32,918 nucleotides of DNA from Hormoscilla sp. Lineage in GTDB: Bacteria > Cyanobacteriota > Cyanobacteriia > Cyanobacteriales > Desertifilaceae. The notes beneath the pieces are model-generated. The model was not told where the DNA came from, ran no database searches, and saw only the letters and a list, made by a program, of their open reading frames with translations. Position 1 is the stretch's first letter. Each line of letters opens with the position of its first letter. The translations under genes and the position numbers were made by a program. The stretch lies in assembly GCA_051439505.1 (NCBI GenBank), contig JBFRWI010000130.1:1-32918 (forward strand). Reading direction: 5' to 3'. Below, one piece after another: positions 1 to 32,007 of the stretch.

Positions 1-1260
1 GGTGATTCTAGCTGGAGTTGCACTGACGCTACAGTTGCCTTGCTCCCAAATCTCTACCTTGAGGACGTTTCAGTCTTTTGCTTGGGTGCTGTTGTCGTTT
101 TACCAAACCGAGACAGATTATAGTTAAACAGCTTTTTACCTCTTTACTCTCATACTGTGAACTTGGCTGCTTATCTGCCAGGGGAAGCTTACATGCTTCC
201 TTCATATAACTACCTTAAACCCTGAATGGTTCGTCTGGCAACCCCTTTTAACAATTCTTTACATTTCGACCCTTAAACACACAACAGCACCCGGTTCGCC
301 CGACCTAGTGACTTCCTCTCTACCGGTGATTCTAGCTGGAGTTGCACTGATGAGACAGTTGCCTTGCTCCCCCATCTTTACCTTGAGGACGTTTCGATCT
401 TTTGCTTGGGTGCTGTTGTCGTTTTACCAAACCGAGACAGATTATAGTTAAACAGCGTTTTACCTCTTTACTCTTGACGTGGACTTGGCTGCTTATCTGC
501 CAGGGAAGCTAATGCTTCATGTTTCTACTTTAAACTCCCAAGGGTTTCTCTGCCAACCCCTTGCAACAATTCTTTACATTTCCTGCCCTTAAACACACAA
601 CAGCACCCGGTTCGCCCGACCTAGTGACTTCCTCTCTCTACCGGTGATTCTAGCTGGAGTTGCACTGACGCTACAGTTGCCTTGCTCCCAAATCTCTACC
701 TTGAGGACGTTTCAGTCTTTTGCTTGGGTGCTGTTGTCTTTTTACCAGACCGAGACAGATTATAGTTAAACAGCTTTTTACCTCTTTACTCTCATACTGT
801 GGACTTGGCTGTTTATCTGCCAGGGAAGCTAATGCTTCATGTTTCTACTTTAAACTCCCAAGGGTTTCTCTGCCAACCCCTTGCAACAATTCTTTACATT
901 TACGGACTTTAAACACACAACAGCACCCGGTTCGCCCGACCGATTTTACTCCTCTCTACCGGTGATAATAACTGGAGTTGCACTGATGCTACAGTTGCCT
1001 TGCTCCCCCATCTCTACCTTGAGGACGTTTCAGCCTTTTGCGTGGGTGCTGTTGTGGTTTTACGAGACAGATTATAGTTAAACAGCGTTTTACCTCTTGT
1101 GTGTGATTGTGGACTTGGCTGCTTATCTGCCAGGGAAGCTAAATGCTTCATGTTTCTACCTTAAACCCTGAATGGTTCCTCTGGCAACCCCTTTTAACAA
1201 TTCGTTACATTTCCTGCCCTTAAACACGCAACAGCAGCCGGTTTGCCGTGCCGGGTGCTG
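1..1260. repeat. Tandem array of ~318-324 bp non-coding units (at least 4; starts at window edge)
   Basis: Motif ggtgat(tc/aa)ta(g/a)ctggagttgcactga recurs at 1, 325, 643 and 961. Units align along their length with local substitutions and indels. No ORF is conserved across units. Confidence 0.95.
212..265 (-). promoter_or_regulatory. Putative sigma70 promoter with upstream HLR1 (RpaB)-like direct repeat, present in each array unit
   Basis: Minus strand TTGCCA-N18-TAAGGT (units 1, 4) or TTGGCA-N18-TAAAGT (units 2, 3). Plus strand TTAACAAT-tc-TTTACATT at 248-265, with equivalents at 563-580, 883-900 and 1194-1211, resembles (G/T)TTACA(T/A)(T/A)-N2-(G/T)TTACA(T/A)(T/A). Confidence 0.5.
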
Positions 1261-1300
1261 CCTCTGAGGGTGAAATTATCTGTGGAGATTAACTGACTGA

Positions 1301-1401
1301 CTTAGTGGTGCAAGCGCCCGTTGGTAGTAGCCCTCACCCGTTCCCAGGCAACCGACAGATGGGAGGCCCATAAACGATCAACGGGCGCTTGCACCACACC
1401 C
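1301..1401. mobile_element. MITE-like element, GGGTGTGG-TIR family; may also act as terminator of the adjacent gene
   Basis: Perfect 19-bp inverted repeat at 1305-1323 and 1379-1397. Right end is CCACACCC. Shares gcgcccgttggtagtagccc with the element at 3220. Confidence 0.7.
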
Positions 1402-1408
1402 TTCACGA

Positions 1409-1798
1409 TCAGCAATAGGCCGTGACATCCTCGCCGCATTCATCGGCCAGGTAGCACAGGGCCCGGAAGCGCAGATAAACCACTTCGTTATAGAGGGGGT
1501 TGAGCTTGCAGAGGGGCGGAATGTGCAACAGGGTGCGGCCAAATAGTTTAATGTCCCGTTCAAATGGACATTGGGTGGGAATGTGCCGGCAGATATAATG
1601 GGCCATTTGGGGATTTCTCACTTCCATGCGATCGAGCCATTGCCGTAGGGGACGCAGCAGATCTAAATTAGTCTGCTGTTGCCGGTGGCTGGGGGACAGG
1701 CTGTATGAAACCTGTTTGCGCAGCCATGACCAACCGGTGATGGCAAGATTTTGCATGGTATAATGACAAACACTCATCTTTTTTTCCTTTGTCTCCAT
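1409..1798 (-). CDS. Mo-dependent nitrogenase C-terminal domain-containing protein (function unknown)
   Basis: Signature IPxQCPFERDIKLFGRTLLHIPPLCKLNPLY...LRFRALCYLADECGED of this cyanobacterial family. Start codon uncertain. Confidence 0.88.
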   Translation of the reverse strand: METKEKKMSVCHYTMQNLAITGWSWLRKQVSYSLSPSHRQQQTNLDLLRPLRQWLDRMEVRNPQMAHYICRHIPTQCPFERDIKLFGRTLLHIPPLCKLNPLYNEVVYLRFRALCYLADECGEDVTAYC

Positions 1799-2952: not shown

Positions 2953-3110
2953 TCTTGCACCATTCTCGATTAGTCTCGTGATCCGCCGGGGGTTAAAACC
3001 CCACCGCGAGTAGCTTAAGTGGGTTAAAACCCCTGTCCCCATTGTCGAGAAAGCGTTTTCTCCTCCTTCGGTGGCTGCTCTCCTCTGCGGAATGCGCTGC
3101 TTGGGAACGA
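2953..3110. repeat. Composite dispersed palindromic repeat (related copy at 25495-25658)
   Basis: ccgccgggggttaaaacccc...tagcttaagtgggttaaaaccc...cattgtcgagaaagcgtttt matches 25495-25588 over about 95 bp. Confidence 0.85.
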
Positions 3111-3219: not shown

Positions 3220-3364
3220 GGGTGTGGCTCCTGCGCCCGTTGGTAGTAGCCCGAACCCGTTCCCAGGCAGAGCCGTGGGAACGAAGGGCCCGGCTACATG
3301 TTCCATACCCGCCTGCGCGGGCTATATTACATATCAGCTATCAACTCTCTGCATGACCACACCC
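3220..3364. mobile_element. MITE with imperfect ~25-bp TIRs and a 9-bp target-site duplication
   Basis: Ends are GGGTGTGG...GTTGGTAG and CTATCAAC...CCACACCC. GTGGAAATC flanks both sides (3211-3219, 3365-3373). Confidence 0.88.
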
Positions 3365-7925: not shown

Positions 7926-9770
7926 ATGAATACCTTTAGTCAAACCATTTGGTTAGTCCCCCTCTACGCCCTCCTGGGTGCAGTGCTGACGGTGCCCTGG
8001 TCGCCGGGTCTGATTCGCCGCTCTGGCCCCCGGCCAGTGGGCTATGTGAATCTGCTGACGACTTTTGCGGGTTTGGTGCATAGCATCTTTGCCTTACGGG
8101 AAGTTTGGTCGGCACCGCTGCATTTTTCAGTCAATTGGCTCCATGCCGCGAATCTAGATATTGCCTTTGATATAGAAGCGTCGGCCACAACAGTGGGTGC
8201 GTTAGTCGTGATCTTGGGCTTGAATGCCCTGACCCAGATCTATGCGATCGGCTATATGGAAATGGACTGGGGTTGGGCGCGGTTCTACGCCCTCCTGGCC
8301 ATCTTTGAAGCCGGGATGAGCGCCCTGATGCTGGCGAATTCGCTCTTTTTCAGCTACGTGATGCTGGAAATCCTGACTTTGGGAACCTACCTGTTGATTG
8401 GTTTTTGGTTTAATCAATCCCTGGTGGTGACGGGGGCCCGGGATGGCTTCCTCACGAAGCGGGTGGGTGACTTGGTGTTGCTGATGGGAGTGGTGGCCCT
8501 TTATCCACTAGCAGGCACCTGGAACTATGACGAACTGACCGCTTGGGCCAATGTGGTAGAACTGGATCCCACAGTTGCCACCCTTCTGGGTTTAGCCCTC
8601 CTGGCGGGCCCCTTGGGTAAATGCGCCCAATTCCCCCTGCAACTCTGGCTGGATGAAGCGATGGAAGGGCCAATGCCTGCCACGGTGCTGCGGAATGCAG
8701 TGGTGGTTTCAACGGGGGCCTGGGTGCTGATTAAGATGCAGCCCATTCTCGCCCTCTCGCCCCTGGTGGCGAATGCGGAAATTTGGGTCGGTGCCTTTAC
8801 TGCCGTCAGTTGTGCCGCGATCGCCCTGGCCCAGGTTGATATTAAGCGGGTCTTTTCCTATGCCACCAGTGTCTATCTGGGTGTAGTGTTCGTCGCTGTG
8901 GGAACGGGACAGGGTGAAGCGGCCTTGATGTTGCTATTGACCTATGCGATCGCTATGGCCTTGATGCTAATGAGCATCGGTGGTATCATCCTCAACAATA
9001 TTACCCAAGATATTACTCAACTGGGGGGGCTCTGGCAACGTCGCCCCATTTCCGGGATCTGCTTTGTAGTCGGGGCCTTGTCCTTAGTGGCAGTGCCGCC
9101 CCTCGGTTGCTTCTGGGGCCTGGCAACAATTGCCAACGGTTTACCCCCCCTGTTGCTGACCCTGTTGTTACTGGTGAATGGGTTAACCGCGTGCAGTGTG
9201 GCCCGGGTCTTCGGTCAACTCTTTACCGGTCCAGCAACGGATTGGACGCGGCGATCGCCCGAAGGTTTGTGGGCCTTGGTCTTACCGATGACAATATTAC
9301 TCGGTTTAGCCCTCCATCTACCGCAGGTGCTGGCTGTCTTGGGTATATTACCGGATATTGCACTGGTGACGCAACCAGCCACCTTATTACTGATGGGTTC
9401 AACTATCATCGGTGGGGGAGTGGGTCTGTTCCTCTATGCTTTGCCCACAGTGCCAAAACCAATTCGTCTACCGGTACCTGCCGTGCAAGATTTCTTCGCC
9501 TACGACTTATACACGGCGCAACTGTACAAAATAACAGTCATTGCCGTAGTAGGATTTGTGGCTAAGGCGATCGATTGGTGCGATCGCATCCTTGTGGATG
9601 GTGCCGTGAATTTTATCGGACTGTTTACGATGGCCAGCGGTCAAAGCCTGAAATACAACACCACTGGACAGGCGCAGTTCTATGCTCTCTCGATCCTGCT
9701 GGGTACGATCCTGTTTGGGTTGGTACTCTGCTATCCCGTTTTATCTGCTTTGAATCTATCCATCTTGTAA
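7926..9770 (+). CDS. ndhF3: NDH-1 CO2-uptake subunit NdhF3
   Basis: NuoL-like membrane protein (GYMEMDWGWARFY, GKCAQFPLQLWLDEAMEGP); first gene of the operon with cupA. ATG 7926 preferred over GTG 7890 because known homologues start just before the TIWLVP segment. Confidence 0.92.
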   Translation: MNTFSQTIWLVPLYALLGAVLTVPWSPGLIRRSGPRPVGYVNLLTTFAGLVHSIFALREVWSAPLHFSVNWLHAANLDIAFDIEASATTVGALVVILGLNALTQIYAIGYMEMDWGWARFYALLAIFEAGMSALMLANSLFFSYVMLEILTLGTYLLIGFWFNQSLVVTGARDGFLTKRVGDLVLLMGVVALYPLAGTWNYDELTAWANVVELDPTVATLLGLALLAGPLGKCAQFPLQLWLDEAMEGPMPATVLRNAVVVSTGAWVLIKMQPILALSPLVANAEIWVGAFTAVSCAAIALAQVDIKRVFSYATSVYLGVVFVAVGTGQGEAALMLLLTYAIAMALMLMSIGGIILNNITQDITQLGGLWQRRPISGICFVVGALSLVAVPPLGCFWGLATIANGLPPLLLTLLLLVNGLTACSVARVFGQLFTGPATDWTRRSPEGLWALVLPMTILLGLALHLPQVLAVLGILPDIALVTQPATLLLMGSTIIGGGVGLFLYALPTVPKPIRLPVPAVQDFFAYDLYTAQLYKITVIAVVGFVAKAIDWCDRILVDGAVNFIGLFTMASGQSLKYNTTGQAQFYALSILLGTILFGLVLCYPVLSALNLSIL

Positions 9771-25494: not shown

Positions 25495-25658
25495 TCGATT
25501 GGTCTCCTGGCCCGCCGGGGGTTCAAACCCCCGGCTAATAGCTTAAGTGGGTTAAAACCCACTCTCTACATTGTCTAGAAAGCGTTTTTACCTCGTTCCC
25601 TGGCTCCGCCAGGGAACGAGGTATAGAGGCTCTGCCTCTAGTTGACAATGGTGCAAGA
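25495..25658. repeat. Composite palindromic repeat between convergent genes; likely bidirectional terminator
   Basis: Hairpins gccgggggttcaaacccccggc, agtgggttaaaacccact, ctcgttccctggctccgccagggaacgag, tagaggctctgcctcta. Confidence 0.8.
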
Positions 25659-31207: not shown

Positions 31208-31717
31208 ATGCAAAAACTTTTAATTGGAACAGTACCTCAACAGGAGATCGCCGCAGCGAAAAAAGTTATCTCTGAACTCCAGGATTACAAAAACAGGTAC
31301 TGGGCGATCGGCCTCAATGGCGATACGCTGCAACCAGACGGGTTTCTCCGGTTCTTCAACGCCCGAAACTTGCCATTCCAGCATTTTGTCCGCAGTCAGG
31401 GTGTGGCAGTGGGCGAACAATCAGCTTACGATGATAACATTGCTACTTTGAATCAGTATATCAAACAGGTACGCGACCAGGAGATTTCTGCGGTCGAAGG
31501 AACAATTAATGAGCTGCTTACTTACCAAAACCGGTACTGGGCGATCGGCCTCAATGGCGATACATTGGAACCAGACGGGTTTGTCCGGTTCTTCAACGCC
31601 CGAAACTTGCCATTCCAGTATTTTGTCCGCAGTCAGGGTTTGGCATTGGGCGAACAATCTGCCTATGATGAGAATATCGCTACCCTGAGGAGATACATTG
31701 AGTCGCTCTCTGATTAG
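31208..31717 (+). CDS. Hypothetical protein made of two ~79-aa repeats
   Basis: NRYWAIGLNGDTLxPDGFxRFFNARNLPFQxFVRSQGxAxGEQSAYDxNIATL occurs twice; DNA offset 237 bp with third-position differences. Confidence 0.85.
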   Translation: MQKLLIGTVPQQEIAAAKKVISELQDYKNRYWAIGLNGDTLQPDGFLRFFNARNLPFQHFVRSQGVAVGEQSAYDDNIATLNQYIKQVRDQEISAVEGTINELLTYQNRYWAIGLNGDTLEPDGFVRFFNARNLPFQYFVRSQGLALGEQSAYDENIATLRRYIESLSD

Positions 31718-31771
31718 AGGGCGATCACCCTTGGGTTTCATAGTTTGGTCCCAGGGGCGATCGTTCTGTAA

Positions 31772-31960
31772 CTGCCTGCAACCATTGCGCCGCTGCCTGC
31801 AACCATTGCGCCGCTGCCTGCAACCATTGCGCCGCTGCCTGCAACCATTGCGCCGCTGCCTGCAACCATTGCGCCGCTGTCTGCAACCATTGCGCCGCTG
31901 CCTGCAACCATTGCGCCGCTGCCTGCAACCATTGCGCCGCTGCCTGCAACCATTGCGCCG
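31772..31960. repeat. Tandem repeat 9 x 21 bp (ctgcctgcaaccattgcgccg)
   Basis: Nine contiguous copies; a single C>T variant in copy 6 (31880). Confidence 0.97.
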
Positions 31961-32007
31961 CAGAATAAAGTGTAAAGTAAAGAAGTACGTGATTGTTTGA
32001 TCTGACT

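Follow-up and report, generated by a model that had tools for sequence, protein, structure and literature searches.

Tandem copies of the PmgR1 RNA gene in Hormoscilla sp. and their possible role as an RNA polymerase decoy

The window analysed here, a stretch of 32,918 nucleotides from a Hormoscilla sp. assembly of 6.47 Mb in 232 contigs, starts at the end of contig C130, and its positions 1–1260 hold four head-to-tail units that are spaced 311–324 bp apart and are 86–94% identical in pairwise comparison. Read on the minus strand, each unit consists of a predicted promoter and a gene for a structured RNA. Copy D (1–205; family HMM E 1e-36; model R1 at 110–201) has its predicted start at 205 and is truncated at the 3′ side where the contig stops. 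Copy C (276–520) is 245 nt long, with domain 1 at 520–433 and the rod of domain 2 at 418–282, as placed by HMM and structural alignment; the HMM also delimits copy B (592–840, 249 nt) and copy A (912–1151, 240 nt). The predicted promoters, likewise on the minus strand, occupy 206–275 for copy D (−10 TAAGGT at 217–212, −35 TTGCCA at 241–236 and an HLR1-like direct repeat at 248–265; from sequence and the family promoter profile), 521–590 for copy C (TTGGCA-18-TAAAGT, 556..527; from a promoter site scan), 841–910 for copy B (876..847; from the same scan) and 1152–1221 for copy A (−10 TAAGGT at 1163–1158, −35 TTGCCA at 1187–1182; from sequence). The remains of one more copy, a decayed 3′ half (1217–1333, minus strand; E 1e-5), lie where the related genome G002 has a full but diverged copy. 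Outside the array, the upstream neighbour encodes a Mo-nitro_C (PF06967) protein (1409–1798, minus strand), as it does at two other loci (L005 and L008). The window also contains a 21-nt tandem repeat of about 10 copies (31730–31982) with an adjoining 220-nt direct duplication (31232–31688, 81%), and short dispersed repeats at 1305–1400 and 3224–3269 and at 2966–3076 and 25495–25605, which are also matched on other contigs and are likely to be REP/MITE-like elements.

An earlier note on this DNA had described at least four tandem units of about 320 bp without a conserved ORF, which agrees with the spacing given above and with the lack of any ORF common to the units. It had also proposed inspecting the sequence left of position 1 for the unit count. 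There the array continues with a fifth copy, at the end of contig C61, so that at least five copies stand back to back, flanked by the Mo-nitro_C gene on one side and by a conserved gene for a 256-amino-acid protein, followed by mltA, on the other. The reverse transcriptase, recombinase or nuclease partner that the note had imagined to the left is not there; the neighbour is the 256-amino-acid gene, whose product has a TIR/nucleoside deoxyribosyltransferase (NDT) fold. Nor did the units turn out to be a MITE scattered through the genome, a possibility that the note had raised: a search of the whole assembly found no other full copy, and all full matches fall at one locus. Unit-to-unit junctions are present in contigs of runs X1 and X2 (from which the assembly may have been made), and three copies stand at the same locus in two of four same-genus genomes; for these two reasons we do not regard the array as an assembly artefact. 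Array pieces in X1 and X2 reach a depth 6–8 times that of single-copy sequence, which is not itself a copy number and is a hint of more than five copies. The RNA run X7 yielded only contigs that are about 90% alike and come from a relative, with no sign of expression. Site patterns among the five copies are mutually incompatible, which would fit unequal exchange, and assembly chimerism could contribute. In four assembled copies the promoter and all of the helices are intact.

Ncr0700/DsiR1 (PmgR1) sequences from two Synechocystis strains are printed in the supplement of PMC6596454; read on the minus strand, every unit tracks the printed Ncr0700 motif by motif. Searching 89 genomes with a 25-nt motif of the printed RNA located five loci; locus L143 equals the printed Ncr0700 letter for letter in a comparison by eye. 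An HMM made only from the five copies of this array found all five of these loci with E values of 1e-9 to 1e-12 in 15 kb (2.5e-10 for L143 and 1.4e-12 for L144, over model positions 14–250), and copy C is identical to L143 at 142 of 246 aligned positions (58%). Given these HMM matches and the identity of copy C to a locus with a published sequence, the array almost certainly consists of tandem copies of the PmgR1 gene. Homology extends over both domains, and strand, 5′ end and promoter layout are the same. Where the earlier note recognised no known family, there is thus a known RNA. Its picture of a multi-copy non-coding RNA with a promoter, here a predicted one, for each unit is supported, on the minus strand, and the starts that it placed near 205, 520, 840 and 1150 fall at 205, 520, 840 and 1151, matching the published 5′ end of Ncr0700. 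The Infernal search against Rfam that it suggested returned nothing: no model in Rfam 15, including those for 6S and Ms1, matches the array RNA.

Two other identities were rejected. The printed sequence of PsrR1 differs, and a 6S gene on the plus strand is contradicted by the canonical 6S gene of this genome at C208:21339–21522 and by the lack of an Rfam match at the array. With four motifs, no PmgR1 homologue was found in the sRNA table of Nostoc PCC 7120, and the plasmids searched gave no PmgR1 match. PmgR1 and its wide range were already known (PMC12873609 mentions 34 homology hits), and the tandem array is a variant of this known RNA; in PCC 6714, PmgR1 is described as the most abundant transcript, maximal in darkness (PMC5386190). 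Neither tandem arrays of PmgR1 nor a 6S-like function for it came up in the literature searched, which did not extend to the 2016 paper by de Porcellinis or to the supplementary material of PMC12873609.

The HLR1-like site and −35/−10 pair that the earlier note had seen on the minus strand of each unit are present, as an HLR1-like direct repeat (HLR1 being the RpaB site), a −35 TTG(C/G)CA and a −10 TAA(G/A)GT; the promoters themselves are predicted. The promoter site scan lists the sites of two of the four units, those of copies C and B, and its overall count of 4 against 1.9 ± 1.2 in shuffles is weak when taken alone. Across the family, a TA...T −10 box occurs at −15 to −3 in 66 of 70 homologues and an upstream motif, AAAGTAAAGTTTAGTT, near −50 in 55 of 70. 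In this genome the motif corresponds to the HLR1-like repeat, and family-wide only one of its half-sites is well conserved. A link of the motif to RpaA, based on a resemblance, found no support in the literature search. The AACC-ctgaat-GGTT element, which the note had read as a kept stem, lies in the −35/−10 spacer outside the predicted RNA and is not conserved in same-genus relatives, and is therefore no evidence of RNA structure.

We derived a secondary structure from an alignment of 54 homologues (A2), which came from 70 non-redundant sequences among 140 full-length copies. The RNA, 240–250 nt in the window copies and not about 210 nt as first estimated, folds into two domains. Domain 1 (about 90 nt) comprises a 5′ hairpin and two nested stems together with a loop whose last nucleotides are AGAGGUAAAA, and its helices 1–3 are conserved mostly in sequence, not by covariation. 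Domain 2 (134–176 nt) is a rod with an 11-bp closing stem, stems of 4 and 6 bp and a central bubble of about 14/19 nt, topped by a GGAG/CUCC stem and an apical hairpin that varies. As quoted in the note, the sequence contains the GAAGC..GCTTC and CACTG..CAGT hairpins with their loop variants. In A2, 94% of 2528 cells are paired and 28 of 47 pairs are compensatory, with changes on both sides, so that the covariation proposed as a check does exist, read with the caveat that kin are not independent and that the structure was drawn from the same alignment. None of 500 shuffles reached any of the measures, slid controls were 39–52% paired, and RNAalifold recovered 32 of the 47 pairs at the same or an adjacent position. 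A helix extension towards the bubble hexamer discussed below had no covariation. The earlier note had left the strand open, holding that the promoter favours minus and several G-U pairs favour plus; the former holds and the latter does not, since 172 G-U cells against 34 A-C cells, read as the minus strand, favour that strand. A same-genus genome carries a copy with an intact domain 2 and a damaged domain 1 that the model does not match (L007, G001:C2).

BLAST detected PmgR1 relatives in 28 of 61 related genomes, and a motif scan of named genomes gave at least 119 loci (about 340 estimated), of which 117 had HMM support; the other two, titled non-cyanobacterial, had none and were dropped as chance matches. 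The titles of the motif loci name Nostoc, Fischerella, Leptolyngbya, Crocosphaera, Acaryochloris and others. With a domain-1 model, whose strict filters make the count a lower bound, 52 of 151 class genomes gave a match. PmgR1 is mostly single-copy, with a single match in 47 of the 52 positive class genomes (5 multi-copy) and one copy in 72 of 77 cases among the named loci (5 multi-copy), yet 11 of 14 genomes of the window's family have 2–5 copies. Next to the 256-amino-acid gene stand three copies each in G002 and G004 and two copies each in G005 and G007, and tandem arrays occur in other lineages as well (L017, L020, L049, L088 and L093). On these counts, the copy expansion probably represents dosage amplification of PmgR1. 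Two further observations were made during these searches. A complete genome with two separate PmgR1 loci has as its only 6S match one that lies below the cut-off (G023:C1:673888–674099, 35 bits). Two other non-coding units, spaced 375 bp and 64% alike, with a partial third copy (L196; G000:C35:5720–6460 and 8695–8837), share the promoter layout of the PmgR1 copies and have a strong hairpin at the end; these units are not PmgR1, have no Rfam match and were found only in the four same-genus genomes among 30 searched.

The 256-amino-acid protein (L001:364–1134, contig C61) is conserved in cyanobacteria, with homologues in 107 of 151 class genomes, and belongs to no Pfam or NCBIfam family. Its structure model (pLDDT 74) has a C-terminal TIR/NDT-like fold resembling DNPH1/MilB/TIR (Foldseek E about 2e-4, TM 0.5–0.6 by target; Atlas lead PF10137 at 0.88); Asp168 and Glu192 are invariant, and the protein is predicted to be an N-glycosidase. 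On the same strand and within 450 nt, the gene follows 57 of the 103 terminal copies that left room to look. It also occurs in families without an RNA match; in five RNA-positive genomes (G020, G044, G261, G267 and G289) it was not found. RNA and protein thus do not co-occur obligately, as they would in a type III toxin–antitoxin or retron-like system, and a PADLOC search gave no meaningful match. As strict co-occurrence is lacking, we treat the gene as ancestral synteny or read-through and not as an obligate partner.

What remains is the question of what the RNA does. The best explanation, to which we give a probability of roughly 40%, is that at least five copies of PmgR1 were expanded for the dose of a protein-binding RNA, most likely a decoy of the RNA polymerase holoenzyme. 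That PmgR1 acts as such a decoy, through a 6S-like mimic of an open promoter, is itself a tentative proposal, and we advance with somewhat greater reserve the idea that it is a second, cyanobacteria-specific 6S-type RNA, diverged but retaining a 6S motif and with a true −10 element in its bubble, that sequesters a sigma-factor-specific polymerase at night and is tuned over evolution by tandem dosage of up to five or more copies. Each array promoter would fire under the same dark and stationary-phase control as in Synechocystis; the 3′ rod would dock in the polymerase with its UAnnnU hexamer as the non-template −10 element; and the docked rod would hold back the holoenzyme once light-driven transcription stops. 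Unequal crossing-over would have made the copies and would continue to shuffle them.

The proposal starts from a long irregular rod with a central bubble, which domain 2 has in common with 6S RNA. On the 3′ strand of the bubble, 3 nt after the upper stem, is a −10-like hexamer with the profile T.83 A.84 G.57 A.58 A.76 T.85 (UAGAAU at 329–334 in copy C), and TA...T occupies this place in 88 of 129 parsed copies (of 140) against a mean of 15 and a maximum of 25 in shuffled bubbles. Where the downstream gene is missing, 25 of 42 copies retain both A(−11) and T(−7), as do 22 of 25 internal copies. From what is known of 6S RNA (PMC5721685), the non-template −10 element of an open-promoter mimic sits at the matching place. 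The 5′ bubble strand is about 14 nt and leads into GGGAG in PmgR1, and is 14–17 nt and leads into GGGAA in cyanobacterial 6S. The only 7–8-mers found in half of both families derive from GAGGUAAAA (19 of 22 6S, 56 of 70 PmgR1), a motif located at 458–466 in copy C; in PmgR1 the 5′ loop of domain 1 carries it as GAGGUAA(A/G)A, and in the cyanobacterial 6S RNAs (L166–L195) GAGGUAA(A/G)AC is in the 3′ strand of the closing stem in 19 of 22. GAGGUAAAA resembles a ribosome-binding site, and its sharing with 6S could be convergent.

Several results weigh against the decoy proposal. The 6S covariance model RF00013 does not match PmgR1, HMM cross-searches with cyanobacterial 6S RNAs detected no homology, and cyanobacterial 6S RNAs have no −10-like hexamer in the 3′ bubble and carry the GAGGUAA motif in the closing stem instead of a loop. 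A full TA...T is kept in 36 of 55 copies where the 256-amino-acid gene follows and in 16 of 42 where it is absent (p 0.008, kin not independent), for which reason the hexamer may be an internal DNA promoter of that gene; an earlier test of hexamer context, comparing same-strand with convergent neighbours, gave p 0.17. For the sedimentation evidence, we take the sll1787 protein to be RpoB. In the Grad-seq data of PMC8136920, ncr0700 peaks in fractions F6–F7 (0.22 and 0.29), like an ordinary mRNA, with a shoulder of 0.095 at F10, whereas the sll1787 protein peaks in F8–F9 and 6S in F10–F11. The RNA thus travels with bulk RNA, its main peak apart from both and overlapping them in part. Should PmgR1 nonetheless prove to be another RNA of the 6S type, it would regulate night-time transcription globally in a large part of the cyanobacteria; it dominates the Synechocystis small-RNA pool in darkness and is reportedly needed to grow in light with glucose, and the recurrence of tandem amplification suggests that it acts by titration.

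Titration could also concern a different protein. PmgR1 might sequester it through domain 1, where near-invariant stems present a loop (AGAGGUAAAA) similar to a ribosome-binding site; the RNA would then be a CsrB-type sponge, or a decoy for the 30S subunit or an RNA-binding protein. In favour of this, what is conserved in domain 1 is mostly the sequence itself and not covarying pairs; GAGGTAAA is enriched near start codons (30 against 6.3 expected in 4223 ORFs of this genome, a count that 5 of 200 permutations reach); PmgR1 sediments in fractions 5–12 with a peak at 8–9, according to PMC12475003; and dosage amplification suits any titrating RNA. We nevertheless consider this reading unlikely, as each RNA has a single such loop, and the fixed bubble geometry and the hexamer of domain 2 would be left unexplained.

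More doubtful still is a classical base-pairing sRNA, whose seed, released or exposed by RNase E, would pair with mRNAs for sugar and glycogen metabolism. Deletion of pmgR1 reportedly affects photomixotrophy and glycogen, going by the title of the 2016 paper by de Porcellinis. PmgR1 is cut by RNase E both in vivo and in vitro (PMC8682795, PMC10939160), but the direct targets and mechanism are stated as unknown (PMC8682795), the RNA is heavily paired and very abundant, and the loop complement occurs at start codons 0–4 times against 4–8 expected, a count from one genome with crude ORF calls and one candidate seed.

That PmgR1 is a cis module for the TIR/NDT-fold gene, an actuaton or RNA-antitoxin-like leader with the hexamer as the DNA promoter of that gene, is improbable. 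Ncr0700 is a published actuaton (PMC5386190), the gene often follows terminal copies on the same strand, where the hexamer is better kept, and its product has the DNPH1/MilB/TIR-like fold; however, the gene is present in families without an RNA match and was not found in the RNA-positive genomes listed above, Ncr0700 stands free in PCC 6714, and internal array copies have no gene behind them. This reading may account for the hexamer without accounting for the RNA. Neutral duplication, a MITE or an assembly artefact is the least probable explanation: the array does break two contigs, the mosaic copies could be assembly chimeras and one copy is decayed, but no dispersed copies, transposase or terminal repeat were seen in the genome, the same locus recurs in relatives on long contigs (G002 and G005), and the four assembled copies mentioned above have stayed intact in helices and promoters. 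The extra copies may still be neutral in origin.

Tandem arrays of individually transcribed non-coding RNAs have been described in cyanobacteria for NsiR1 and for a seven-repeat RNA of Trichodesmium (PMC6596454, PMC4143802). The NsiR1 array resembles the present one, with its individual predicted promoters, in layout but is unrelated in sequence, and no NsiR1 was found in the Rfam scan of the window. The Trichodesmium array is similarly a tandem non-coding RNA array but was rejected as the same family, because homology is lacking: the probe locus matches neither the PmgR1 HMM nor the model. The published Trichodesmium probe was not found in 90 genomes or in metagenome contigs and occurred seven times in one of 401 genomes; there (L165, G571:C1:103766–109770) the seven-copy array encodes an RNA that folds as a long rod plus terminator, and a search of the whole genome gave no domain-1 match.

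Compared with 6S RNA (SsrS/SsaA, RF00013), PmgR1 has a similar rod, in which a closing stem and an apical stem flank a central bubble, a GGGA stem at the bubble edge and the GAGGUAA(A/G)A motif, and in Synechocystis it is abundant in the dark and in stationary phase; it differs in its extra 90-nt 5′ domain, in lacking a covariance-model or HMM match, in the separate location of the canonical 6S gene in this genome and in its Grad-seq peak. Ms1 RNA of Actinobacteria, about 300 nt long, is likewise abundant in stationary phase. It binds the core enzyme of the polymerase and has a structure related to that of 6S (PMC9130861), but PmgR1 has no Rfam match, and its −10-like hexamer would point to the holoenzyme, not the core. 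Relative to PmgR1 of Synechocystis PCC 6803/6714, the predicted array RNA is about 40 nt shorter, is encoded upstream of the TIR/NDT-fold gene and is present in at least five tandem copies as opposed to one, and it is homologous over its length, with the same 5′ end, promoter layout and helices.
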